This document shows, in pieces, positions 454 through 29,697 of a stretch of 64,000 bases of DNA. Position 1 is the stretch's first letter; each line of letters starts with the position of its first letter. A program made the position numbers and the translations under genes. The DNA is from Candidatus Heimdallarchaeota archaeon (lineage in GTDB: Archaea > Asgardarchaeota > Heimdallarchaeia > Heimdallarchaeales > Heimdallarchaeaceae), in the NCBI GenBank assembly GCA_018238545.1, contig JABCTC010000010.1:1-64000 (forward strand), given 5' to 3'. The notes under the pieces were generated by a model. That model made no database searches and was not told where the DNA came from. It was given only the letters and a program-made list of their open reading frames with translations.

Positions 454-3354
454 GTGCCCATGCGAAAAAAAGCCAAGCAAACAGAATTTTTAACTCAAAA
501 ATACTTGTGTCCTCATCATCTTTCAGAAGATAAAATAAGTGGGGGACTCAATACTGATATCAGATTTGGTTTACATGATGATGAAGCAGTTAAACGATTA
601 AAACAATATGGTCCTAATGTAATTCCTAAAATCAAAGGATCAATTTGGGAGATATATCTAGCTCCATTGTTTAATTGGTTAATCAATATCTATCTGATTG
701 TTTCTTCTATTCTAATATTCATGGCAATATGGGTAGACGGCGTTATTGGGCAAATTGGCTTTTGGTTAATAATAATTGTTTTCAATATTGGTTTTACAAT
801 TTTTCAACAAATAAGAGCTCAATTCAAATTGGATGCATTACACAAGCTAGCTGCTCCGAGATCTACAGTAATACGAGATGGTGTCCCTAGACAAATAGTT
901 GCTGTAGATTTGGTACCTGGTGACTTAATTGAATTGGATCAAGGAGATAGGGTTCCTGCCGATGCAAGAATAATCTATTCAAGTAATTGTTTAGCAAATG
1001 AAAGCGCATTAACAGGAGAATCGGTAGCTGTTGAAAAGAATCACAAGCCCAAAAATACTCTTCAAGAAGATACTCCTATATCGCTTAGAGTTAATATGCT
1101 CTATACTGGTACATTTGTTGAAGTAGGTAGGGCAAATGCTATAGTAGTAAATACAGGCATTTATACAGAAATTGGAAAATTATCAACAGAATTACAAAAG
1201 ATAGGAACTACAGATATCCCGATTCGAGCTAAAGTAAACAGATTAGCTAAATGGTTGGGATTAACTGTTCTAGCTTATCTGGTGATTTCAATAATATACA
1301 AAACAATCTATTATTACACTATTGGAGGAGATATACCTCTACCAAATCAGATTGTAGATTCTATAACAACTTCAATGGCGATTATGCCTATTAGTATCCC
1401 TCTATTGACGACTTTGATATTACTTACTGGAGTATTATCGATGGCAAAAGACAGAGTGATAATTCGGAATCTTTCTGCGGTAGAGACATTAGGTAGAAGT
1501 TCTGTTCTATGCAGCGATAAAACAGGAACTATAACAACTAATATGATGACTATCCAAAGGATCTGGGATACAAGTCAATTTTATGGTGTGTCAGGAATAG
1601 GATACAGTAACAAAGGTGCTATAGTTCCTCTTGGTGATGAACCGGGAAATTTCTCGGAAGACATGTATATACCTGACACGATAAAACCTTTTGCAGAAGA
1701 TTCAAAATTAGAGTATTTGCTTGTTGGAGGTATGTTAAATAATAATGCTCATTTGATTGTAGAAGAAGTTTTCGAACCTCATCATCAAGTCTCTTGGAAA
1801 ACTACTGGAGATCCTACAGATGGGGCATTTTTAGCATTATTCAATAAATCAGGATTAAATGAGAAGGAAACTAAAAAACAATATGGATACATTATGGAAT
1901 ATAATTTTGATTCAACATTGAAACGAATGAGTAAAACCTATCAAGATAAGGAAGGGTACTCACTTTTTTGCAAAGGTGCAACAGAGACCATTTTACCTTT
2001 ATGTAATAGGATTGGTAGTCCATCAGATTACAAGGAATTAACAGTTGAAGATACTAGGAAAATAAATGATTATGTTAGTGAGTTTGCATCAAAAGGTTAC
2101 AGAGTAATTTCTTTAGCAATAAGACCAATGGATAAAGATACGCTGTTAAGTCATGATAGAGCAGAATCAGAACAAGAATTAATTTACAATGGTTTTGTTT
2201 GTATGTTAGATCCAGCTCGATATGGTGTTGGTGACGCAGTGAATGAGTGTTACAAAGCTGGTGTTACTACAATAATGATAACAGGCGATAGTCCACTGAC
2301 TGCAAAAGCAATTGCTAAAGATGTAGGGATAGTTCAAAAAGATGAACTAGCAATAGAAGGAAATGATATAGCAAAACTTTCAGACGAAGAATTCTTCAAC
2401 ACAAGAATATTTGCAAGAGTTTCCCCACAACATAAACAAGTGATCATAGCAAAATATCAAAGCAAAGGTAAAATCGTATCTATGACAGGTGATGGTGTAA
2501 ATGATTCCTTAGCCCTAACAATGGCTGATGTTGGAATTTGTATGGGAATTGCTGGTACTGAAACAGCGAAACAAGCTTCTGATGTTATCATAGCTGATGA
2601 TAGTTTTACCAGTACTGTTTTAGGTATCAGAGAGGGGAGGGGATTGTTTAACCGCATTAGAATTATGATTTTCTTTTACATTGCATTAAACATAGCTGAA
2701 GCAATTTTATATTTCTCTAGCTCTTTTATTCCTGATTTTGCACTTGTTACAAGTTTTCAGAGAGTTTATATTTTCTCCACTGCTCATTTAATCCCGCCCT
2801 TTGCCTTTATTTTTGATAGTATAACTCAGGAAATAATGGAATATCCTCCAAGAGATGATGAAGACATTTTCAACAGACGCTATATAGGCGCTCTTGTAGT
2901 ACTTGCACTTTCTCTAGCATTCGCAGCTGGATTGATCTACTTCTTAGCCTTTTTTGGTATTATACCTACAACAACTAACCCGTTGAATGAAGTTAGTCTA
3001 CTAGCAGATTTGCAACAAGCTAAAGCAAGAACTATGTTTATTTCAATAATCGTCATTTCAGAAAGTTTAGTTGTGTTAGTGCTACGTCGACTGAACAAAC
3101 CTGTTCATAGATCCATAAAAGAAGATTGGAGATGGGTAGTTATGTTACTTGTAATAATTGTGCCGATTCTACATATTTTCCTAATGTACTCTGGTTGGCT
3201 CCAAGACATTGTTCTCATATTCTTTGATGACCCTTATGTTTTTATGCCACTTGGATTTACGGATTGGTTGATTGTTATAGGTGCAATAGCTATTCCTCTT
3301 ACAGCAATAGAAATTTACAAATGGATTGTCAGAAGGAGGAATAAATACTTCTAG
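454..3354 (+). CDS. P-type ATPase, P2 (SERCA-like) scaffold with atypical transport site
   Basis: TGES, CSDKTGT phosphorylation site, KGATE, MITGD and TGDGVND motifs, about 10 TM segments. TM4 reads PISIP instead of PEGLP. Confidence 0.95.
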   Translation: MPMRKKAKQTEFLTQKYLCPHHLSEDKISGGLNTDIRFGLHDDEAVKRLKQYGPNVIPKIKGSIWEIYLAPLFNWLINIYLIVSSILIFMAIWVDGVIGQIGFWLIIIVFNIGFTIFQQIRAQFKLDALHKLAAPRSTVIRDGVPRQIVAVDLVPGDLIELDQGDRVPADARIIYSSNCLANESALTGESVAVEKNHKPKNTLQEDTPISLRVNMLYTGTFVEVGRANAIVVNTGIYTEIGKLSTELQKIGTTDIPIRAKVNRLAKWLGLTVLAYLVISIIYKTIYYYTIGGDIPLPNQIVDSITTSMAIMPISIPLLTTLILLTGVLSMAKDRVIIRNLSAVETLGRSSVLCSDKTGTITTNMMTIQRIWDTSQFYGVSGIGYSNKGAIVPLGDEPGNFSEDMYIPDTIKPFAEDSKLEYLLVGGMLNNNAHLIVEEVFEPHHQVSWKTTGDPTDGAFLALFNKSGLNEKETKKQYGYIMEYNFDSTLKRMSKTYQDKEGYSLFCKGATETILPLCNRIGSPSDYKELTVEDTRKINDYVSEFASKGYRVISLAIRPMDKDTLLSHDRAESEQELIYNGFVCMLDPARYGVGDAVNECYKAGVTTIMITGDSPLTAKAIAKDVGIVQKDELAIEGNDIAKLSDEEFFNTRIFARVSPQHKQVIIAKYQSKGKIVSMTGDGVNDSLALTMADVGICMGIAGTETAKQASDVIIADDSFTSTVLGIREGRGLFNRIRIMIFFYIALNIAEAILYFSSSFIPDFALVTSFQRVYIFSTAHLIPPFAFIFDSITQEIMEYPPRDDEDIFNRRYIGALVVLALSLAFAAGLIYFLAFFGIIPTTTNPLNEVSLLADLQQAKARTMFISIIVISESLVVLVLRRLNKPVHRSIKEDWRWVVMLLVIIVPILHIFLMYSGWLQDIVLIFFDDPYVFMPLGFTDWLIVIGAIAIPLTAIEIYKWIVRRRNKYF

Positions 3355-3582: not shown

Positions 3583-4314
3583 TTGCTAATGGATTCAAAT
3601 CACAAAAAGAAACTACTTATTTGCCGCGAAACCGACATTATTTGTACGGGTGGAGTAGTATTCATTGGTGATGGTGCAGTTGGAAAGACTCATACAGCTT
3701 TGAATTTGGCTAGTTATAAGAAAGGATCATTCCATACTGCTGATTGTGCTAACTTATCCAAATCCGTTAATTTGGAATTCGATTACTTCATTCTCTATTC
3801 AAATATTGAAAAATACAAAGTAACTATAAGTTCTCAATTATTCATAATGCCTGGACAGAAAGGGAGAGCTGAAGCTGGGGAAGGATTAGCTTTTGAAGAT
3901 GCGGTTGACATGTACTTCAACGTAAGAAGTATAAATGATGTAATAGCACTAATGTTAACCTATAATCTTGCTGATATTAGAACCTTTCAAAATTTAGAAT
4001 ATTGGTTAAACAGAGCAATTGATCACGAGTTGATCTCAGATTATACTAGCATAATATTACTTGGAACACATCTTGATCATGTTATTTCATCGGATGTTTC
4101 TGCCAATATGGTTGCAGATGGTGAAGTTTTTGTCAGACAAAGAATAGATGATAAACTTGGTATAGATATGGGTTCGGATAGAATAAGTTCAGTGGAGATT
4201 TCTAATTTACATAGAACGGGAATTGATGAACTACAAGATAGCGTGTCAAAAGCCTTCTTCAGGGCATTTGAGATAGAAAAAGTAGTATATGGGGTAATAA
4301 GTCAAGATAATTAG
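3583..4314 (+). CDS. Divergent Ras-superfamily small GTPase
   Basis: G1 GDGAVGKT, G3-like IMPGQ, G4-like GTHLD, G5-like ISNL..TGI. Probable start is the ATG at 3589. Confidence 0.8.
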   Translation: MLMDSNHKKKLLICRETDIICTGGVVFIGDGAVGKTHTALNLASYKKGSFHTADCANLSKSVNLEFDYFILYSNIEKYKVTISSQLFIMPGQKGRAEAGEGLAFEDAVDMYFNVRSINDVIALMLTYNLADIRTFQNLEYWLNRAIDHELISDYTSIILLGTHLDHVISSDVSANMVADGEVFVRQRIDDKLGIDMGSDRISSVEISNLHRTGIDELQDSVSKAFFRAFEIEKVVYGVISQDN

Positions 4315-4453
4315 AAGCTTGCAAATGTAATAATCTTTATTATTTGCATGTTATATTGTTAAATACAATAATAGTACAAAATCTTAATAATTCAGATTAA
4401 AGAAATCTTGCGATAAATTGAGGTATTAGAAATCAAGTCTAGAAGAGGATATC

Positions 4454-7400
4454 ATGTCTAAAAATATGTCAAAATTATTATCAATTTTTATAGTTACATT
4501 ATTCGTCAGTTCACTAATCTATTTTGAACCTTCATTAAATAACGAAAATATAACTGATTCAGTATTTCCTAATGAACCTATTCTTCCAGACAATGATAAT
4601 GAATCTGATGAAAATATAAATGACGAGGATGATAGTGGAACAACTCCTATAAAGAAGTTAGAAATTCCCGGAGACTACAAATCTTTCGCTTTTTTCAGTG
4701 GCGGCGGAACAGAACAAGGACTAGAACTAATCGCTGATCCAGAAGGGGAAGAGCAAATCTACTGGGGTGATTCAAGAGAAAATGTTATCGTATGGGAAAC
4801 ATATGATGATATCAAAGATGATGCTTATTTGGCTAAGGAACTATACTGGAGAGCACTAAGTACAGCATCTCATACTTGGCCTACTCAAGCAAATGTATGG
4901 TTTCATATGCACGAACAAAATTACCCTGATGAACCTTCAAAAATGTTCAGTCCAGTTTTCTCTGAAGATTGGTATATAAGTGGAAGAGTACATTATTTAA
5001 CTTATCTTGAAACGTCAACTTTTTCTGAATCAATAACAATAGGTGTAAGATTAAGTGTTCACCTTTTCAACCCAGCTGATCAAAGCACCTCCTTAATTAC
5101 ATCAACAACATTTACCGTTCCAATATCTTATGCTATGACTCAAAGGACCTTTTCTTCTGACATAGCTTCACCAGTATTAATTCCTGCTGGCTATAGGTTA
5201 AAGTATGACATTGAGTTAAGATTTAGCAGTATCCCTACTACTGGTTCTGTACTAATGTTCACTGGATATCCTGTTGGTGGAGGAGGATCGATGACTTGGA
5301 ATATAGTCGATGGGATTTATTCCAACAGTTATACTTTATTAAACAGAACTAGGATGTCAGGTGTTCAGTTGTACATGAGGAAAGATGTTTATCCCGATAT
5401 ACAGATTTTCAATGCTGTAAATGAGACAGTATATTCTTCAGCTAGAGATATAACAATTGATGTAACAGATGGTTCAACAAGTAGTTTTAGATGGAATGGG
5501 AATCCTGTCTGGACTCCATTTGACAATGATACTTTAACTTCATTGCCTTTAGTACATGGATGGAATACTTTAGAAGTGAAAGCAAGCGATCCAATTTACA
5601 ATAACACGATAGTAGAGCTTTATCAGTTTGGTTATGATGAATCTCCAGTTAATGTTGTTTTAGATAATGCTATAAATAACTCAGTTATAGCTGGTGATTA
5701 TGATCTCCAGTTCAGCGTCTATAATATAACCTCTGCAAAGTATAGGTGGGATGGTAGTGGCCCTCAAATAGATTTCAATTCACCTTATAATATTACGGCA
5801 GATAATTTTGAAGGCTTACATGATTTAAGAATCATTACAACTGATTTCTATACTGAGGAGTCATATTATTACAAGTTCACTTTTGATTCTACGGCACCTA
5901 CCATGATTTTACAATCACCAAGCAATAATACTTTACAAGCTCCAAGAAAATCAATTAATATAGATGTTAACGATTCATCAGGAGTTGACGTAGTTACTTA
6001 TCACTGGGATGCAGATGCGGAAGCACTGTTGAACCTTATTGGTGGTATTACCTATAGAACATTCTTACCCTCTGCAGGAGGGTGGCATGATCTGTATGTT
6101 ACTGCAAATGATACCCATGGAAATCAAGTAACTTCATATTATACTTTCTTTACAGATCCAACCATACTTAATGTAGAATTAAGATATATGATAGATGATT
6201 CATATTTTGTTGGTGGTAATGATGTCGAGGTTACAATAACTTCTTCAAATGATACAATAAAATATCAATGGGATAATGATGTTTTTTGGAAAGATAAACT
6301 TGACGCAGTTTGGGATGGTACATATCTTAAACTTACGAATGTAGAAGGATTGCCTTCAACTCTAGGTGTTCACATTTTAAAAATTCGAACAGGTGATCTT
6401 TCACATGTTGAACATATTTTTACTTTTAAATTCACAGTAGATCAGCAAGCACCAGAGTATGATATTTCTGTGTTCAATTATAGTAATTTAAGATATTTGG
6501 GGTCTGAAGCACTCACGTTTACTGTAACAGACAATTATACACTTTCAGCTGAAATCTTAATGGACATTTCAGTCGATGGAGGATTTAATCAATCTCTATT
6601 GTTTCCTTTCATGCTACCACTATTTTCATTCTTTGATGGTAACCATAGCATTGTGATATATGTTTGGGATGTTGCCGGTAATGTGAACGTGACAACAATA
6701 TATGTTATAGTTGATAACACAGCTCCATATATAGATTATCTTATCACAGAACTAGTCAATTATATTCATGTAGATGGCAATAGATATGTACCAGCAGATG
6801 CTCTAGTTGATGTCACACTAACAGATGCGGATTCAACTCTTTTCAGTTATTATTCAATCAATGGAACAGCATTTTTACCATTCATTTCCGATTTTAATCT
6901 AGGTTTTCTTGAAGGTTTTCTAGAAGTAACTGTAAGAGCAAATGATAGCTTAGGTAATCAATTTGATTTGCTTTTTAGTTTAATTCTTGATAATAGTCCT
7001 CCAACATTGAATCTCATCTTTCCATTTAACTATATTTCAGAAATAAATGACCTAACACCCTTGCAATTCAATACACAAGATCTTTCTGATAAAACAATCG
7101 ATTCAGTTGAATATGAATGGGATATCTTTCCAGGATTCACAGCAAATGCATATCCTGAAACAGATGGCGATTTCGAATTCAAACTGCTCTTATTTATACA
7201 AGATGCTTATGCACCAGGTAGTACTGCACAATTGACATTTTATCTTGAAGATATAGTTGGAAATATTGCTATAACTAAGTATAATTTTACTGTTGATAAA
7301 ACAAAACCAATTGATTCATTCTACATTTTTAATGAAACTATTCTAGACTATGAACACATTAGTCAGTTTTATTATGTACAAGGAAACACAGAAATTATTT

Positions 7401-9292
7401 ATGACAATACAGAAAATGATGATGTTCTTAAGCTGGAATATTATTGGGATGGAAACACATCAGAGGGAGCGGTTATAGTACTTCTGAATGGGACAAACCT
7501 ATTTCCGTGGTTCATAAATGTACCCACAATTGATGGAGAACACAATTTAACAATCAAGCTATATGATAATACAGGCGAAGATCAATATCCAAATATCAGA
7601 ACTGAAACTTATTTCTTAAAAGTCGATGATATAACGATTAACTATATTACACCCACTGATTTTTCAAACAACTACCATACAACAATCTTGTATGAGGAAA
7701 GTTTCAATTTTAGGATAAATGTTACAGATACTTTAGATGGGCAACCTCTTGATAATGTGAATATCTCTTATAACTACGATTCCACCTACAATCTCAGTTT
7801 TGAAATTGTCCAGATTGATAATATAACTTATGATTTTACAATAACGGCTTATAACGTAACAAATGGTTTAGAAACAGAAATTGAATTTTATATCTCTCAA
7901 TATGCTGACCATAAAGATATGATTGTTATACATCTTAGGGTTGATAAGAGAGAAGGGAATTTACTTGTCTTGCAAGGTGGTTATGATAGTCTTTACTATG
8001 ATAGTATAACCAATCTCACACTGCAATTGAATGATCATTTGAACATTTCTGCTCAAGAGATTCTAAGCATTACAGTAAATGGTACTGAAGTATCTTTTCT
8101 ATATTTTTCAGAAAATAAAACAGCAAGTATCTCTCTCTATATACCTGATTTTATTGATAAGCAAGGCAATTATACTTTCGAAATTTACGTAGAGTCCTCA
8201 GAATATTTTGATACAATGATTGATTCCTCTATTATTACTATAGATGTAAAACCAATGTTAGTTCTATTAGATGTATGGGTATTAAATTCAACAATTCTAG
8301 AAGGTAATCCTGTATCAATTATGGCAAATCTAACCTTAACGGATGGAACACCAGTAGCATTTGTGGAAATTTATTTTATAATTTATATCTACCTAAAAAC
8401 CAGTCCAGAACTTCCATCTACGGTTGTTCGACTATCTTTTGAGGATTCTGACTACAATGATACACAACATGCAGATACTGGATCTAATGGTTTGGCATTT
8501 TTATCTTATACTCTGAACTCCAACATTTCTTCAATCAAAATAGAAGCTGGATTTCTGGGTGATGACACACGGGATCAAACACAATTTACATTTGATGGCA
8601 TAGTGATTACATATCCACCTCCTGAAGCTGAAGAGCTCCCTGTCTGGCTATTAGCTTTAATAATAGGTGGAAGCATTTTAATTGCTGGAATCATCTCCTT
8701 CATTATTTACAAAGCTACACGACCTAAACCTTTCGAAGAATTAATGAAGAAAATAACTGATGAGGAAATAGTTCTAAATTATTCTATTCTCTCTCCTGGT
8801 ATTATGTTGTCAATATTTGATCAACGGAAAGGTCCGATTCCATTAGTAACTGATCATTCTTTGAGTGTTGGTCGATACTTGGGAAGAATGCAGATTGGAA
8901 TAGAAAATTTTCTACTTAAAATTGCAGATCAAGCTTATTCCAGCTTAGGTTTTGAGGAACATACCAATGAGAGGAGAGTTGGATCGATAGTACTACCTAG
9001 TGAGAAAATGATCGGATTTTTGCAAGGTATTCAACTAAAGAATCCTCAATCTCGAGGAGGTTTTGAGAATCTTTCTCTGATAGTTCTTGCTGATAGAGAA
9101 TATGGAAACCTACTTCTTAACTACCAAGAGTATCTTTATCCAAAAATAGATGAATTGGAAGTTGCACTCAAAGGTAAAGATACTCTGAAGAAAGTAGAAG
9201 AGTTGATGAAAGAAATCCGTAAGATATCTGTGATAATTGTCCTCGCTGCCCAAAAAGCTGAAAAAGCACAAGAAAACGGAAATAATTCATAA
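4454..9292 (+). CDS. Large single-pass membrane protein: signal/anchor, Ig-like beta-repeat ectodomain, TM helix, cytoplasmic uDENN/longin (folliculin-like) domain
   Basis: Hydrophobic N-terminus. Repeated 'Y.WD', 'G.H.L.....D..GN' and 'D.T.P' Ig-like motifs with many NxS/T sequons. TM LPVWLLALIIGGSILIAGIISFIIY at about 8636-8710, followed by LSIFDQRKGP and LKNPQSRGG. Confidence 0.8.
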   Translation: MSKNMSKLLSIFIVTLFVSSLIYFEPSLNNENITDSVFPNEPILPDNDNESDENINDEDDSGTTPIKKLEIPGDYKSFAFFSGGGTEQGLELIADPEGEEQIYWGDSRENVIVWETYDDIKDDAYLAKELYWRALSTASHTWPTQANVWFHMHEQNYPDEPSKMFSPVFSEDWYISGRVHYLTYLETSTFSESITIGVRLSVHLFNPADQSTSLITSTTFTVPISYAMTQRTFSSDIASPVLIPAGYRLKYDIELRFSSIPTTGSVLMFTGYPVGGGGSMTWNIVDGIYSNSYTLLNRTRMSGVQLYMRKDVYPDIQIFNAVNETVYSSARDITIDVTDGSTSSFRWNGNPVWTPFDNDTLTSLPLVHGWNTLEVKASDPIYNNTIVELYQFGYDESPVNVVLDNAINNSVIAGDYDLQFSVYNITSAKYRWDGSGPQIDFNSPYNITADNFEGLHDLRIITTDFYTEESYYYKFTFDSTAPTMILQSPSNNTLQAPRKSINIDVNDSSGVDVVTYHWDADAEALLNLIGGITYRTFLPSAGGWHDLYVTANDTHGNQVTSYYTFFTDPTILNVELRYMIDDSYFVGGNDVEVTITSSNDTIKYQWDNDVFWKDKLDAVWDGTYLKLTNVEGLPSTLGVHILKIRTGDLSHVEHIFTFKFTVDQQAPEYDISVFNYSNLRYLGSEALTFTVTDNYTLSAEILMDISVDGGFNQSLLFPFMLPLFSFFDGNHSIVIYVWDVAGNVNVTTIYVIVDNTAPYIDYLITELVNYIHVDGNRYVPADALVDVTLTDADSTLFSYYSINGTAFLPFISDFNLGFLEGFLEVTVRANDSLGNQFDLLFSLILDNSPPTLNLIFPFNYISEINDLTPLQFNTQDLSDKTIDSVEYEWDIFPGFTANAYPETDGDFEFKLLLFIQDAYAPGSTAQLTFYLEDIVGNIAITKYNFTVDKTKPIDSFYIFNETILDYEHISQFYYVQGNTEIIYDNTENDDVLKLEYYWDGNTSEGAVIVLLNGTNLFPWFINVPTIDGEHNLTIKLYDNTGEDQYPNIRTETYFLKVDDITINYITPTDFSNNYHTTILYEESFNFRINVTDTLDGQPLDNVNISYNYDSTYNLSFEIVQIDNITYDFTITAYNVTNGLETEIEFYISQYADHKDMIVIHLRVDKREGNLLVLQGGYDSLYYDSITNLTLQLNDHLNISAQEILSITVNGTEVSFLYFSENKTASISLYIPDFIDKQGNYTFEIYVESSEYFDTMIDSSIITIDVKPMLVLLDVWVLNSTILEGNPVSIMANLTLTDGTPVAFVEIYFIIYIYLKTSPELPSTVVRLSFEDSDYNDTQHADTGSNGLAFLSYTLNSNISSIKIEAGFLGDDTRDQTQFTFDGIVITYPPPEAEELPVWLLALIIGGSILIAGIISFIIYKATRPKPFEELMKKITDEEIVLNYSILSPGIMLSIFDQRKGPIPLVTDHSLSVGRYLGRMQIGIENFLLKIADQAYSSLGFEEHTNERRVGSIVLPSEKMIGFLQGIQLKNPQSRGGFENLSLIVLADREYGNLLLNYQEYLYPKIDELEVALKGKDTLKKVEELMKEIRKISVIIVLAAQKAEKAQENGNNS

Positions 9293-9295
9293 CAA

Positions 9296-9311
9296 TTCCC
9301 TTTTTTTTCTC
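9296..9311 (+). terminator. Possible oligo-T archaeal terminator
   Basis: ttcccttttttttctc directly after the stop of the 1612-aa gene. Confidence 0.35.
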
Positions 9312-9392
9312 CAGCCTTCATCGATATATTGATATTTTAATATAACTCTATATTTTTAAAGAGGTCAACAACGCTGTTAGAGGTTACTACTT

Positions 9393-11123
9393 ATGTCATA
9401 CCTATTCGATGAAATATACGGCAAAAATGAAGAAGCTCCTGCTATCGAAGATAAGATTCTACTTATGGGTCTCCAAGCTGCAGGGAAAACCGCAATAAAA
9501 GACGTGGTTTTCTTCAATAAATCTCCAGAAGATATGGAAGATTACATGGCTACAGTACACTATCAACGTCATTTTATTGACGAAGAAAAATCAAGTATGG
9601 TTATTGATTCAGGTGGCCAAGAAAGTTATTGGAACGAAGCTGTAACACATTTTCGACATCTTGTATTTTCAAATGTCAAGTTACTTATGTGGATTGTTGA
9701 TGTCACTCATCCCGAGATGTTTGAAGAATCAGAAAGAAGATTCAGTTTTACAATACGACAATATAAAAAAGAAAACCCCAATGGAAAAATAACTGTATTG
9801 TGTCACAAAGTAGATCTTGTACCACCAGAGAGAATGGTAGTTATTCATCAACACATACGAGAATCATTTGATGATCCCCGTTTTGAAATAGATTATGAGA
9901 ATACAAGTATCTATTACGGAGAAAGTCTAAAGGAATTAGTTTTTACAATTATGGCTGAAGCTGGTATCGATACTAAACGATTTGAGTTAATTTCCAACTT
10001 AGGTCAGAAAGTGGAGGAAAGTGATGAGTTCCAAAGCTATCTTATGGAACATAAAGAAGATCCAAGAATTGAACAGCTTTTAGATTTTCTCAAACCTGAA
10101 GCTGATATTACATTACCCACATTTGGTAATTTAGATCTACAATTTGACTTAACAGAATATGGCATTGTAGAAATTGTTCTTATTGATAGGGACACATTTT
10201 CTCCTATAGTAGGTGCATCCTCTAAAACCGATGTTTCAACACAAAATTCAATGGATTATCTAATCGCTCTTCATGATTTCAAACGTTATGTTAAGGAGAA
10301 GAGTCAAGAGATTGAGCCCACGGGAACTATAGTTACATCATCAAATGAAAAAGTTCATGGAATGATTTTCAATCTTGCTAGTAATTTCTTACTTGTAACT
10401 TCTTTCTCTGAAATTACAGAAGAGAAAAAGAAAATGTTTTTTGAGCTTATACTCAAGTTTGCAAAATCAACTGCAGATTCAACTCAAGAAACTAAACCTG
10501 AACCAGCTCCTGTTGTTGTTCCAGAATCTGCACCAGTAACAGTTCCTTCAGTTCCTATTACTGAAGAAACAGTAACTGTTGATACTGAACCAATAGTTAT
10601 TGAAAAGACAGTGGAGGTTCCTCACATGGAGATAATAGAAACAGAGTTGGTTGTAGAAGAAGCTAATACTGTTGAACCAGAAATCATGTTACCACCCTCT
10701 CCATCTCCTGTTAAACTTGTTTCAGAGGAAACAGAAGGAGAGAAAGAACAAGTTAAATCAGAACCAATTGAAATAGAGCATATTGAAGAACCTGCTGAGA
10801 CACCAAAAATTCCTGTAGAATCAGAACCCACTATTGTCGAAGAAACTCTAGAAATTTTAACTGAGCCAACAACTCCATCAGTTCTAGAGTCCAATACTGT
10901 ATCAGATATTCTAGATTCAACTGAACCTGTAGCTACACTAAGTGGTATCGGAGATTCAAGTGCAATCAGTTTTTCAGCAGATGATATAAAGGACTTTGCT
11001 AATTTCTTAGTTAACAAGAAAGAAACAGTACTAGAAGAAATATCATTAGATGAGGTTAAAGGTATGTCTGACTTTCTGACAAAAGGATTAGTAGCTGAAG
11101 AAGATGATACAATTGAAGAATAA
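9393..11123 (+). CDS. Rag/Gtr1-family GTPase with roadblock/longin-like domain and acidic disordered tail
   Basis: KILLMGLQAAGKT, ATV, DSGGQ, HKVD and TSIY are Rag signatures (RagA: KVLLMGKSGSGKT, ATI, DCGGQ, HKMD, TSIW). E/P/T/V-rich C-terminal third. Confidence 0.9.
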   Translation: MSYLFDEIYGKNEEAPAIEDKILLMGLQAAGKTAIKDVVFFNKSPEDMEDYMATVHYQRHFIDEEKSSMVIDSGGQESYWNEAVTHFRHLVFSNVKLLMWIVDVTHPEMFEESERRFSFTIRQYKKENPNGKITVLCHKVDLVPPERMVVIHQHIRESFDDPRFEIDYENTSIYYGESLKELVFTIMAEAGIDTKRFELISNLGQKVEESDEFQSYLMEHKEDPRIEQLLDFLKPEADITLPTFGNLDLQFDLTEYGIVEIVLIDRDTFSPIVGASSKTDVSTQNSMDYLIALHDFKRYVKEKSQEIEPTGTIVTSSNEKVHGMIFNLASNFLLVTSFSEITEEKKKMFFELILKFAKSTADSTQETKPEPAPVVVPESAPVTVPSVPITEETVTVDTEPIVIEKTVEVPHMEIIETELVVEEANTVEPEIMLPPSPSPVKLVSEETEGEKEQVKSEPIEIEHIEEPAETPKIPVESEPTIVEETLEILTEPTTPSVLESNTVSDILDSTEPVATLSGIGDSSAISFSADDIKDFANFLVNKKETVLEEISLDEVKGMSDFLTKGLVAEEDDTIEE

Positions 11124-11211
11124 GAAGAACAAACTGTAGAATAAATTACTTCTAATCCAGAATCTTTTATGATTGTCTTTTTGTACAACTTTTGGATTTT
11201 TCTGTATTACT

Positions 11212-12441
11212 TTATACTGGTCGACTGTCACCATATCTTCTATATTCTAGTTGTGCATCTAGGAAGATTGGTATCTCTCGCATCTCTGTAACACATTCAT
11301 GAATAGGATAAATCTCAATAGATGTTGAACCAAATCCTTTCTGAACCTTAATCCCTCTTTCAAGTTGTTCAGAGTTTTCAACTGCCACATCAAGCATTGA
11401 TTTCTGCAGGTTTCTTCCACAAACATCGCACCTAAAACTAATTTTCTTGTCAACTCTTATTTCAACAACCTCGTCTTTAGGAATACTATTTTTTGCTAAA
11501 TAATTGATGAGAGTGTCTTTCATCTTGAGTTTAGCTCTTCCAAGAAGTTCGTCAGGTTGGAATAGTTGTTGCATCTCAACTGCTAAGGTATCGAAATATT
11601 CCTTTTCATTTACTATATCAGTTGCTGGAGGAAAAACGGTTGTTAATACTAAATCTTCATTTATTTCTTTCATATAGACTCTGTTTTCTTCAAAAGAAAA
11701 TATAACATGATCTAAAACTAAAGTTGGTGAAAACATTTTTGCAAGATCATTTTTCAATTTAATGAAATTATATCCAGCATACCTTTCAGGTTGAGAATAT
11801 AACATTAAACCTTGTGCTGTTGATAGCGCAATAAACACTAAATCTTGCTGTTGGAACTTTTCTTTAATTTTACTGGATTTACTGTCATCTTTTGGGTAAA
11901 CATAAGCTAATACTTGTTGCATTGCATCCCATATTGTATCTTCAAAAATTGATGTTCCAATGATTTCTGCGTTTGGGAAATCCTCAATTTCGAAAATCTC
12001 TTTAATTGATTGTAAAACCGATTCTCGTTTATTAGGTGGGACTACATCCATCTTATGTGCAAATACGTATATTCGTGCTTCTCCACTTATCTCTTTTGTA
12101 GATTTAACAGTAAGATCAAAATAGTATTTTGAACGCATGATATTTGATGCATCAGAGATATCAACAACAAAAATCAAAGCTTTTGCATCACTGAATGTTC
12201 TTTCTTTGTATTGATCAAAAACTTCGTTCAAGTAATTGCTCTGCCCGCCGACATCAAAAAGATTAATCGCACTACCTGCAAGATTAAACAATTTCCGGTT
12301 TATACGGACTGTGGCTGGGTTCATTGATGTTGCTTCGGGAGCAAATCCTTCAAAAACAACTTGGCGAATGGAGGTTTTCCCTGATTGAGATAAACCTAAA
12401 ACGACTATCTTCGATTCTAATTCACTAGTACCGCCGTACAT
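11212..12441 (-). CDS. Rag/Gtr1-family GTPase with roadblock-like domain and C-terminal Zn-binding domain
   Basis: GLSQSGKTS, ATV, DVGGQ, HKMD, TSIF; C-terminal CDVCG...HEC. Start moved to the ATG at 12441 (MYGGTSELESK), which follows a GTGAGG RBS-like sequence; the track ORF begins at 12510. Confidence 0.9.
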   Translation of the reverse strand: MYGGTSELESKIVVLGLSQSGKTSIRQVVFEGFAPEATSMNPATVRINRKLFNLAGSAINLFDVGGQSNYLNEVFDQYKERTFSDAKALIFVVDISDASNIMRSKYYFDLTVKSTKEISGEARIYVFAHKMDVVPPNKRESVLQSIKEIFEIEDFPNAEIIGTSIFEDTIWDAMQQVLAYVYPKDDSKSSKIKEKFQQQDLVFIALSTAQGLMLYSQPERYAGYNFIKLKNDLAKMFSPTLVLDHVIFSFEENRVYMKEINEDLVLTTVFPPATDIVNEKEYFDTLAVEMQQLFQPDELLGRAKLKMKDTLINYLAKNSIPKDEVVEIRVDKKISFRCDVCGRNLQKSMLDVAVENSEQLERGIKVQKGFGSTSIEIYPIHECVTEMREIPIFLDAQLEYRRYGDSRPV

Positions 12442-26911: not shown

Positions 26912-27922
26912 ATGTCTTTCTATGAATTTCGAAAACGCATAATGGAAGAAAAAGCTAAACGAGAAAAACGAGGAAAAAAAACTCGGACAGAAGCAACATC
27001 TCAACAAGAATCAATTGTTGGAAGAAACAAATTTAGTGTAGCATTATTAGGGTTAGAAAGAGCTGGAAAAACATCGTTAGTTAAAAAATTATTAAAACAA
27101 GAAGATATTGTTGTTAGACCAACGTATGGTGTTAATCTAGAAAACTATCAATATCGAGATTTAAACTTTACTTGCTTTGATCTAGGAGGCCATCAGCCTT
27201 TCAGATTGAGCTTATGGAAAAAATTTATTGAGCGAGCCGATGCAGTAATTTACTTAGTAGATTCAGCTGATCATGTAAGATTTGATGAATCTAAGCAAAC
27301 TTTTTGGCATTATATTAATTTCGCAAAACAGAACGCTCCTGTATTATTCTTAGCGAACAAAAGTGATCTACCCAATTCAAAAGAATTATCTGAAATCAAT
27401 GAACATTTCGAACTAGATAAATTTTTAAGAAATCTCAGACCATTCAACATCAAAAAAGTTTCAGCTTTAACAGGTCAAGGAGTCTATGAAGCTTGGGATT
27501 GGATGGTGGACGTTCTATGCGGAGCAGCTCAGTGGAAGGTTAAGATAGGCGCTGCTGTTTTGACAGATATTTCAGGTAACATTATCTCTGAAGCTATTTT
27601 TGGTAACCCTAATGAGCAAGCTACTGTTGCAAACGATTTTAAGAAATTAAAAGAATTAACTAAAATGTTTGCAGTTGAAGCTAAGGAAAGTATTCAATCA
27701 ATAAAGCTAGAGAATTTATATAAAAAACACGTTAGTCATGTTAAACGTGGAGCGTATTGTCTTTCAGTAATGATCGACCCTATTGATCCTGTTACAAGAG
27801 CCCAACAGATTCAACTTCGAATTTTAGAAAATTTCAGTAGGAATCCTGCTGAAGTAAGTAAAGACTTAGGAGATGTCTTCGAAAGTAAGTTCCCACTTGA
27901 AGTAGAAGGAGGAAGACGGTAA
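26912..27922 (+). CDS. Arf/Sar1-like small GTPase fused to a C-terminal longin/roadblock-like domain
   Basis: GLERAGKT, PTYG, FDLGGH, NKSD and SALTG motifs; GGTGA RBS upstream. Confidence 0.9.
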   Translation: MSFYEFRKRIMEEKAKREKRGKKTRTEATSQQESIVGRNKFSVALLGLERAGKTSLVKKLLKQEDIVVRPTYGVNLENYQYRDLNFTCFDLGGHQPFRLSLWKKFIERADAVIYLVDSADHVRFDESKQTFWHYINFAKQNAPVLFLANKSDLPNSKELSEINEHFELDKFLRNLRPFNIKKVSALTGQGVYEAWDWMVDVLCGAAQWKVKIGAAVLTDISGNIISEAIFGNPNEQATVANDFKKLKELTKMFAVEAKESIQSIKLENLYKKHVSHVKRGAYCLSVMIDPIDPVTRAQQIQLRILENFSRNPAEVSKDLGDVFESKFPLEVEGGRR

Positions 27923-28912
27923 TTGAGTAATTATCTCTCGTTTATACGAGATAAGATGATGTCTGAGAAGAGTAGAAAAATCCCCCAAATTGTTATTCTT
28001 GGGCTAGAAGGTTCAGGAAAGTCAACCGTTCTTAATCGTCTTTTGTTTGGAACTATTGCTGAGGGACAACCTTCACAATCTACTTGTTTCGTTAATGTAA
28101 AATATGGTACGACCATTCTTTCAGTTATTGAAGCTAGTGAAGAAACAGCTCGTGAAAGTCCTTACTTCCAAGATATTCTTGGTGAGATAGATGGGGTTGT
28201 ATTCGTGATAAATTCTCAGTCACTTCGACATATAGAAGCCTCGTTTGAATATGTTTTTACCTTATTTGATAAAATCCCTCAAAAGACATCAATTCTTTTC
28301 CTTGCAAACAAAATAGACAAACCAGGTGCTGTTCCTTTTCCAGATTTACTTCAAGATCCAGCATTTCAAATAATTATGGACGATATCAATCGTTCTGTTT
28401 CAATTTATCCAATAAGTGCCAAAACCGGAGAGACTTTCTATACCGCTTTTGATTGGATTATTTCAAGAATGACAGGGAGGACACCTTTACGTGAAGATGT
28501 AACTCCAAAGAGAGTTATTATTCTTCAAGAAGGAGGAGTACCTGCATTTGATTATATCTTCGATGCTTCTGGCGAGGAGCATGATAGCACATTGCTTGGA
28601 GGATTGATTAGTGCATTAAATATAATGGCTACTACTATCTTTGAAAGCGAATCTGTGATGGATGTTGTAAAACTAGGCGCTATGAAGATGATTATACGAA
28701 AAGTAAGTGGATGGAGCATAGTATTATTCGTTGGTAGAGATGATAGTGAGTCTAAAGCACAATCTCTTGCCGAGGAGATTCTTCAAGCATTTATTGAAGA
28801 ACGGGATAGAGATCCGACTAAAGAAATGCCAAAACAAGTTAAATACGAAATTTTGCGCAAAATCCCTGAAATCGCGATTGCTTTAGATCAAGAACCAATA
28901 AAGGATGATTAA
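27923..28912 (+). CDS. Arf-like GTPase with degenerate G2/G3, fused to a longin-like domain
   Basis: GLEGSGKS, NKID and SAKTG are present; G3 is replaced by IEASEE. The C-terminal 'D..LLGGLISAL..M' segment is longin/roadblock-like. Confidence 0.8.
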   Translation: MSNYLSFIRDKMMSEKSRKIPQIVILGLEGSGKSTVLNRLLFGTIAEGQPSQSTCFVNVKYGTTILSVIEASEETARESPYFQDILGEIDGVVFVINSQSLRHIEASFEYVFTLFDKIPQKTSILFLANKIDKPGAVPFPDLLQDPAFQIIMDDINRSVSIYPISAKTGETFYTAFDWIISRMTGRTPLREDVTPKRVIILQEGGVPAFDYIFDASGEEHDSTLLGGLISALNIMATTIFESESVMDVVKLGAMKMIIRKVSGWSIVLFVGRDDSESKAQSLAEEILQAFIEERDRDPTKEMPKQVKYEILRKIPEIAIALDQEPIKDD

Positions 28913-28926
28913 AAGGAGAAAAATAA

Positions 28927-29697
28927 ATGATAAATCCAAATATTTCCAAAGAACCAACTTTGGTGTTCAGTATATTCAAAGATTATGGACCAGAAATATT
29001 ATTCAATAATTCTATATTAGATGAAAATACAGCTCTAACACTAGTTATGACAGGTATGACCCTTGTTGAAATGAACAAGCCTTCAATTGGCAGATTAGAT
29101 GGAAGTCAAAGACCAAAAATGCTTGGTCCCATACCTGTTCCAGATAATGAAACTTTGAAAGCTATAGCTATTCCGTTTGAAACTGAAATAACCTCATCTA
29201 CTGATGTGAGAATTGAGCAAGCAGGATACAGATTATGTGTCGCATATTTCTTATTTGAAGGCTCAGCTGTACGAGAAGTATTAGATAGTTATGGCCTAAT
29301 TATACCCTATTTCACATTAATTGCAAGAAGTCTTGGCACAGAAGCGAATATTAATCCTTCATCCATTAAACAGGTCTTCGTAAAAATGGTTGATATGTTC
29401 TCTGGAAAAATCCCCAGGATCTATGGTGTTAATCAAGATAATTCTCTGAAAGAAATGATAGGCAAAAGATTAGAATACGCAGATACATACCTTCTTTGTG
29501 ATTTGCACAAAAATGAGATGTACATACTTTTGTATAATCCTTCAATGGATGTGTGGAGAAGAAGAGAGATCTACAAAGTGGCGTCCGAGTTAAATTCTAA
29601 TATGTTCAAGAGTTCTATGAGAATAAAAACAGTTGAAGATGTTAAGGAAATGGTGAGGATTTTAGACATTCTTAACATAGAAATATCTCCCGTATAA
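28927..29697 (+). CDS. uDENN/longin-like domain fused to a gelsolin-like domain (putative)
   Basis: N-terminal LVFSIFKDYGP..., GPIPVP and TDVR; C-terminal DTYLLCD...EMYI.......RRREIYKVASELN resembles a gelsolin repeat. Confidence 0.5.
   Translation: MINPNISKEPTLVFSIFKDYGPEILFNNSILDENTALTLVMTGMTLVEMNKPSIGRLDGSQRPKMLGPIPVPDNETLKAIAIPFETEITSSTDVRIEQAGYRLCVAYFLFEGSAVREVLDSYGLIIPYFTLIARSLGTEANINPSSIKQVFVKMVDMFSGKIPRIYGVNQDNSLKEMIGKRLEYADTYLLCDLHKNEMYILLYNPSMDVWRRREIYKVASELNSNMFKSSMRIKTVEDVKEMVRILDILNIEISPV

Follow-up and report, generated by a model that had tools for sequence, protein, structure and literature searches.

A large surface protein encoded in a heimdallarchaeial genome carries, on the inner side of a single transmembrane helix, a longin domain with the fold and the catalytic-site motifs of the GTPase-activating proteins (GAPs) FLCN, SMCR8 and NPRL2, and its gene is held in a conserved cassette with three genes for small GTPases, two of which are Rag-like. 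The cassette occupies positions 3583-12441 of the window, by which is meant the whole stretch of DNA that was analysed, 64,000 nucleotides of Candidatus Heimdallarchaeota archaeon (assembly GCA_018238545.1, contig JABCTC010000010.1, positions 1-64,000), and its genes are referred to in order as GTP0, receptor, Rag1 and the convergent Rag2. On sequence and modelled structure, it is about an even call that the receptor tail acts as a membrane-anchored, arginine-finger GAP for the Rag-like GTPases of the cassette. The topology given by hydropathy, the fold of the tail, its catalytic-site motifs and the linkage of the four genes are observed; control of the tail by a ligand outside the cell is possible but doubtful. 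If it works in this way, the system would be an archaeal Rag switch wired to the membrane, an idea that can be tested but is unproven.

The longin tail and its catalytic site

The tail comprises residues 1425-1612 of the receptor (8726-9289, + strand) and, when modelled from an alignment of 149 homologues, forms a five-stranded longin sheet with a predicted local distance difference test score (pLDDT) of 93. In fold searches a Loki longin ranked first (Z 12.4-12.8), followed by Lst4, C9orf72 and FLCN (Z 11.3-11.9), with SMCR8 (Z 10.6), the GATOR1 subunits (about 9) and the SNARE, TRAPP and adaptor longins (9.4 or less) placed lower. Individually, Lst4 scored 11.9, C9orf72 11.8, active FLCN (8dhb_J) 11.6 with an rmsd of 3.0 over 136 aligned residues and a Foldseek E-value of 5e-4, and a further FLCN structure (6nzd_H) 11.5 with an rmsd of 2.5 over 132. 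Neighbours of the tail in a structure atlas include the folliculin, SMCR8 and C9orf72 clusters, and 52 of the 149 tail homologues match the Pfam Folliculin family weakly; the tail of the window itself gave no Pfam match.

An earlier note, made from the letters of this stretch, had proposed a folliculin-like uDENN/longin GAP domain here and had named FLCN, SMCR8 and NPRL2 as the folds against which it should be checked. The longin part of that proposal survives the comparison, and a GP motif as well as an arginine finger, both described below, were added to it; the DENN part does not stand. The chain ends within about 15 residues of the last helix that is matched to the FLCN longin, as do all the tail homologues at that same point, and there is therefore no DENN module.

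Conservation within the tail is concentrated on what would be a catalytic site. The only invariant columns among the 149 homologues, which extend down to 20% identity, are F1455, G1460 and R1534. The first two belong to the F1455...G1460-P1461 motif (8816-8836, + strand) in the turn between beta1 and beta2, in which F and G are found in 149/149 sequences and P in 136/149, and Arg1534 (9053-9055, + strand; 149/149), the candidate arginine finger, sits in the loop between beta4 and beta5. A profile mixing the receptor with soluble relatives aligned F1455 with F63, G1460-P1461 with G68-P69 and R1534 with R147 of SMCR8; this alignment has an E-value of 1.5, weak when taken alone, with residues paired by counting along it, and it is backed by the fold match. 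R147 of SMCR8 is the arginine finger common to FLCN and NPRL2. Only the mixed alignment reached SMCR8; FLCN was not recovered in profile searches of the PDB that started from alignments of receptors only or from a single Loki longin. PMC12290439 treats the combination of GP and arginine finger as a mark peculiar to the longins of GAPs. In the longin fold, the GP at the start of beta2 and the equivalent Arg, the tail agrees with the catalytic subunits of the longin-type GAPs.

Within the host genome the receptor gene is the sole strong match to the receptor-longin profile, and it is flanked by the two best Rag matches that the genome holds, an adjacency far beyond chance. A search of the same genome for FNIP_N found none, with a control that matched nowhere and makes the search uninformative, and a search for the Folliculin family was blank, again with an uninformative control. 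The GP and Arg motifs were seen there in one further gene product, a soluble protein of 417 residues that also has a V4R/TRAPPC3-like domain (locus L003:601-1854, - strand, on host contig C119; L-numbers denote fetched loci, C-numbers contigs of the host genome and G-numbers related genomes). It is a possible soluble partner, or possibly a second GAP.

Conservation of the cassette

How closely are the four genes tied to one another? Of the 31 genomes with a Rag1 orthologue, which span two families, 28 have the receptor gene immediately in front of Rag1; the conserved neighbourhood with two Rag-like GTPases, which the earlier note had made one of the tests of its proposal, is thereby supported. 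The full order of GTP0, receptor, Rag1 and convergent Rag2 is found in the window and in 12 fetched loci with differing flanks, with one or two copies of the receptor, and three in one truncated locus. In G005 the block is rearranged and all four genes are still together. Orthologues of all four are absent from G002, G004, G007 (a single contig) and G017, genomes that are 90-95% complete. In G072 (L052:4069-7858) the receptor has lost its ectodomain and carries a frameshift in the tail, GTP0 is frameshifted as well, the middle of Rag2 is missing and Rag1 keeps an open frame with an altered G3 motif. The four genes are thus retained jointly and lost jointly, and in this one genome they decay jointly.

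The GTPases and the candidate client

Rag1 and Rag2 score above the threshold of the Pfam family Gtr1_RagA (E 1.6e-25 and 1.1e-32), carry Rag motifs (HKVD/TSIY and HKMD/TSIF) and have intact G1-G5 motifs with the catalytic Gln kept. Rag1 (9393-11123, + strand, 576 residues) consists of a G domain at residues ~19-190, a roadblock-like region at ~250-360 and a variable tail. Rag2 (11212-12441, - strand) has 409 residues with the ATG at 12441 taken as its start, a codon that is preceded by a ribosome-binding site and agrees with the start of its orthologues; its Rag-like G domain is followed by a roadblock-like region at ~185-300 and a C-terminal CxxC/HxC domain. The sequence pattern would fit a roadblock domain in these regions: the alignment of Rag2 with human RagA extends to residue 231, and a feature search gave Gtr1/RagA clusters at 0.82, which is a lead only. 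There are 12 matches to PF04670 in the host genome, with Rag1 and Rag2 as the two best; in a G-domain tree, from which one row with a wrong start was dropped and eukaryotic sequences were left out, 8 of the remaining 10 separate onto a side of Rab-like proteins, C86 forms a long branch whose position is unsure, and C125 joins the Loki proteins.

The earlier note had likened the pair to the RagA/B-RagC/D heterodimer. Rag1 matches Gtr1/RagA at 1e-14 and RagC/Gtr2 at 2e-8, and Rag2 at 3e-23 and 9e-12. Both thus score better against Gtr1/RagA, and an equivalence in which one partner stands for RagA and the other for RagC is not supported. Complex prediction with the tail, Rag1 (residues 14-362), Rag2 (residues 5-300) and GTP returned a score of 0.00, which is no evidence either way.

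The remaining GTPase, GTP0 (3583-4314, + strand), is a divergent Rab/Ras-like protein of 243 residues (Pfam Ras, E 8e-6) with an intact P-loop, a G3 motif that lacks the Asp (PGQ) and a G4 motif of the form THxD, all of which are conserved in 17 orthologues. Against the PDB it found only weak Rab matches.

Which of these GTPases is the client? Besides the cassette itself, the surroundings of related longins point to the Rag-like proteins. Half of the eight fetched solo receptor paralogues adjoin a short GTPase that groups with Rag2 (support 95/97), and in a third family 3 of 20 loci hold a different Rag-like pair within the fetched stretch. Neither the solo paralogues nor the third family yielded a GTP0 orthologue. 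In one family that belongs to another class, 103 of 106 genomes contain relatives detected by the longin profile, and there the five fetched loci (L064, L065, L066, L069 and L070) encode soluble proteins of ~470-490 residues; the three that were scanned have the longin fused to a Rag-like G domain, and two of them pass the Pfam Folliculin cut-off. Among 120 such longin-Rag proteins, several of them named Lokiarchaeota or Promethearchaeota, the GP is present in all and the Arg motif in 116. Taken together, the cassette, the Rag2-clade genes beside solo paralogues and the longin-Rag fusions point to Rag-like GTPases as clients.

The Lokiarchaeial longin-Rag fusion deserves mention in its own right as a candidate self-contained GAP-GTPase that is widespread in Lokiarchaeia. 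An example is L070:4145-5602 (- strand), and such proteins are usually annotated only as Arf-like or small GTPases.

Two regions of the Rag proteins lie outside the shared domains. The C-terminus of Rag2 (11215-11430, - strand) is a domain of ~75 residues with invariant CxxC and HxC motifs and no Pfam match, probably a zinc site judging by these motifs; eukaryotic Rags are not known to have such a domain. The tail of Rag1 (~10480-11030, + strand) is long, acidic, Pro-rich and of low complexity, and the open frames of Rag1 orthologues run to ~500-700 codons.

Topology and ectodomain of the receptor

The receptor (4454-9292, + strand) is a type I membrane protein of 1612 residues with 75 homologues of similar length, and it is laid out as a single-pass receptor with a signal helix, a jelly-roll, about 11 immunoglobulin (Ig)-like repeats, one transmembrane helix and the conserved cytoplasmic longin domain. 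Hydropathy identifies an N-terminal hydrophobic helix, either signal peptide or anchor, at residues ~5-26 (4466-4531, + strand), and the single transmembrane helix at residues ~1397-1420 (8642-8713, + strand), with basic residues after it. Between these, a jelly-roll beta-sandwich of ~235 residues (residues ~75-310; 4676-5383, + strand) resembles the C-terminal domain of PepX/CocE and is followed by the Ig-like repeats of ~90 residues each (5384-8617, + strand), which are rich in N-glycosylation sequons; the outer side of the receptor has 40. A model of residues 65-480 (pLDDT 90) shows the jelly-roll and then Ig-like repeats. The jelly-roll matches 8yzn_A (Z 13.0, rmsd 2.9, 155 aligned) and 6nff_A (Z 11.5) and is a candidate ligand-binding tip. 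The first two repeats were modelled and match Ig/Fn3 domains, and the remainder were counted from recurring motifs; the Pfam Big_13 match to the repeats is weak, and a self-BLAST of the receptor did not detect them. Fold matches of the ectodomain include SiiE, SraP, PTPRM, PTPRK and Eph.

The two sides of the membrane differ greatly in their conservation. Among 63 full-length homologues the mean identity is 24-45% in the folded ectodomain versus 53-74% in the tail, and distant homologues have the same transmembrane helix and tail with ectodomains of very different lengths, a sequence pattern that fits a variable sensor or adhesin placed on a fixed output domain. In another family, tandem triplets of surface proteins with a transmembrane helix and longin were observed (L024:7374-19999, L025, L027, L035 and L036). 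The first protein of a triplet reaches up to ~9,000-10,000 codons, and the third, of ~1000 residues as checked in L024, no longer has the GP or the Arg and in this resembles a non-catalytic partner.

Proposed mechanism and alternatives

In the mechanism that we propose, an adhesin-like membrane protein at the cell surface would present a cytoplasmic longin GAP of the FLCN/SMCR8/NPRL2 type, whose most likely client would be the G domain of Rag2 inside a Rag1-Rag2 pair. Eukaryotic longin GAPs need two longins, as is seen from the requirement for V146 of FNIP2 beside F10 and R164 of FLCN. By analogy with these proteins, two longin domains would pair into a platform, the GP loop would dock the G domain and Arg1534 would enter the GTP site, such that GTP hydrolysis would be triggered, and the Rag-like GTPases turned off, at the membrane patch where the receptor sits. 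The tandem copies in relatives and the Arg-less third copy in third-family arrays would fit such a pairing of catalytic and non-catalytic subunits. With one longin per transmembrane helix, pairing would depend on the ectodomain, offering a route for control from outside: clustering of ectodomains by a surface, a partner cell or a glycan could, more speculatively and in the manner of plexins, join the tails and gate the GAP. It can be put forward only tentatively that contact or a ligand at the jelly-roll/Ig ectodomain dimerises FLCN-type tails and so switches the co-encoded Rag-like pair, the whole being akin to the ancestral form of the FLCN/GATOR1-Rag system but wired to the membrane, and dating from before the lysosome and before TOR. 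The earlier note had placed the switch upstream of TORC1, a placement that is not supported here. Searches of the host genome with Raptor_N, FRB and PI3_PI4_kinase gave no match, with controls that were weak or uninformative, and Liu et al. report that they found no homologue of the mTOR kinase among Asgard archaea; the output would therefore be something other than TORC1, and remodelling of the membrane or cytoskeleton at contact sites seems likeliest.

Several observations weigh against the tail being a GAP for the Rag-like GTPases. The top matches of its fold include the non-catalytic C9orf72 and Lst4, and fold alone therefore cannot separate a GAP from a platform; the sequence alignment to SMCR8 is by itself weak. 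In G003 the Rag pair lies on another contig and GTP0 stays with a split receptor gene. Most receptor paralogues of the third family have no GTPase neighbour, and most of the short Rag2-like genes sit away from receptors. The longin family is also promiscuous, in that Arg-bearing members are fused to winged-helix (wHTH; L067:5030-5770, + strand), V4R and Rab/Ras-like GTPase domains (L071:229-1305, + strand). Finally, the genomes with the cassette are kin, related by descent, and their counts are thus not independent samples.

A rather unlikely alternative makes the tail a docking platform without catalysis, or a GEF-like (guanine nucleotide exchange factor-like) scaffold, in which the conserved Arg is a binding residue and the GTPases serve the receptor, steering its delivery, clustering or anchoring to a membrane skeleton. 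Longin dimers form the GEF platforms of TRAPP and Mon1-Ccz1 (PMC10933270), the ectodomain with its SiiE and SraP matches resembles a repetitive adhesin, the best fold matches include the non-catalytic proteins named above, and most of the giant paralogues of up to ~10,000 codons lie without GTPase neighbours. Set against this, a GP with a loop Arg marks catalytic subunits and not GEF longins (PMC12290439), and the Arg is kept without exception here, whereas a separate class of paralogues has lost both GP and Arg, as non-catalytic partners do. Were the tail a GAP, its client could instead be GTP0, whose rewired G3 may need a catalytic residue from outside. Every intact cassette, the rearranged one of G005 among them, has GTP0 immediately upstream of the receptor gene and in the same orientation, as does G003, where the Rag pair has moved away. 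SMCR8 acts on Arf, which makes the choice of client flexible, and one member of the longin family is fused to a Rab-like GTPase. This option is nevertheless improbable, given that GTP0 was not found beside the solo paralogues or in the third family and that Rag-like genes recur beside or fused to the longin in three settings. Least weight is given to a co-inherited surface and signalling island whose products make no direct biochemical contact, the client of the tail being encoded elsewhere. The cassette is not one operon, Rag2 being convergent and Rag1 having its own upstream motif, and small GTPases are encoded by the dozen in the genome, among them the Arf-like pair that lies 15 kb off; yet the genes stay together through a rearrangement, are missing together and decay together while the flanks change, and these facts, together with the existence of longin-Rag fusion proteins, make mere co-inheritance very improbable.

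Relation to known systems

The receptor tail shares with FLCN-FNIP, GATOR1 and SMCR8-C9orf72 the longin fold, the GP motif and an Arg in the equivalent loop, and it has Rag-like proteins as probable clients. Within these complexes, FLCN-FNIP (Lst7-Lst4 in yeast) acts on RagC/D, NPRL2-NPRL3 in GATOR1 on RagA/B and SMCR8-C9orf72 on Arf, folliculin serving to turn off Rag GTPases in human nutrient sensing. By fold and motifs the tail would work like FLCN, GATOR1 or SMCR8, but it is not a member of a longin-DENN complex: unlike them, the receptor has no DENN module and is fused to a transmembrane helix and an ectodomain of 1400 residues. Whereas the eukaryotic complexes are recruited by Ragulator, WDR41 or SLC38A9, the tail is itself fused to the membrane, and in contrast to the eukaryotic systems no FNIP-like partner, TOR or Raptor was detected in its own genome, in searches with weak controls.

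Plexins are single-pass proteins with a ligand-gated intracellular GAP of the RasGAP fold. Like RPTP-mu and Eph receptors they combine an ectodomain with an intracellular GAP or enzyme, as the present receptor would, and its jelly-roll tip on an Ig/Fn3 stalk recalls PTPRM, PTPRK and Eph, which are among its fold matches; the resemblance is offered as an analogy only and not as homology.

Among Asgard archaea, FLCN/SMCR8-type longins with the GP and arginine finger have been reported and proposed to be GAPs (PMC12290439), and FLCN-like and NPRL2-like proteins have been described (bioRxiv 10.1101/2020.10.19.343400). The present tail is of the same domain family, motifs and lineage, and in the available text of these sources neither a single-pass surface fusion nor a conserved cassette that names the client GTPases is described. 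Soluble Lokiarchaeial proteins in which longin, GTPase and roadblock form one chain, and a pair of Rag-like genes in MK-D1, are known (PMC10933270); they have Rag-like G domains with roadblock tails and a longin of the same GP/Arg family, but the longin of the receptor is membrane-anchored and separate from its GTPases. In a literature search, with subscription papers mostly outside its scope, no paper came to light that deals with the single-pass surface fusion or with the cassette. The architecture had been presented in the earlier note as undescribed, which appears to be correct for the fusion and the cassette and not for the GP/Arg longin, already published for Heimdallarchaeia (PMC12290439).

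Tran et al. (PMC10933270) note the difficulty of pairing the small GTPases of Asgard archaea with their GAPs or GEFs, since common operons are rare, and Novak et al. (PMC12290439) leave open whether the clients of GP/Arg longins are Arf- or Rag-like. By naming three candidate clients and one catalytic residue, the cassette makes both questions testable. If the proposed mechanism is true, control of Rag-like GTPases by longin GAPs is older than eukaryotes, and its link to the cell surface came first and its place at the lysosome later.

Genomic setting

The host genome is 3.6 Mb in size and 92% complete, and the named homologues of the receptor come mostly from Heimdallarchaeota, in keeping with a heimdallarchaeial window. 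An open reading frame check confirmed all four genes; together with hydropathy and Pfam it agrees with the earlier account of four adjacent genes for a divergent GTPase, a 1612-residue single-pass protein with an Ig ectodomain and two GTPases of Rag signature. Contigs of four DNA runs cover the cassette stretch in pieces.

The convergent orientation of Rag2 and the oligo-T tract behind the receptor gene, both pointed out before, are real. The tract, a T8 at 9301-9308 (+ strand), is a possible terminator and is not conserved, the longest T run in the second family being 2-4. A motif at 9320-9337 (+ strand), 62-71 bases upstream of the Rag1 start, recurs in 17 of 25 loci in two families, is not enriched genome-wide and is probably Rag1's own promoter or regulator site. 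The idea that it is a shared regulator site of all four genes was rejected, as it is absent upstream of the other three. Because Rag2 is convergent and Rag1 has this conserved motif, the cassette is a cluster and not one operon. A scan for sigma-70 promoters and terminators, of a type unsuited to archaea, performed at chance level.

Upstream of the cassette, a gene for a P-type cation ATPase (454-3354, + strand) is found near it only in some close relatives, and belongs to the flank rather than to the cassette. Further along the window, at 26912-29697 (+ strand), a gene for a 256-residue protein without Pfam match follows two adjacent Arf-family GTPase genes, the pair that lies 15 kb from the cassette.

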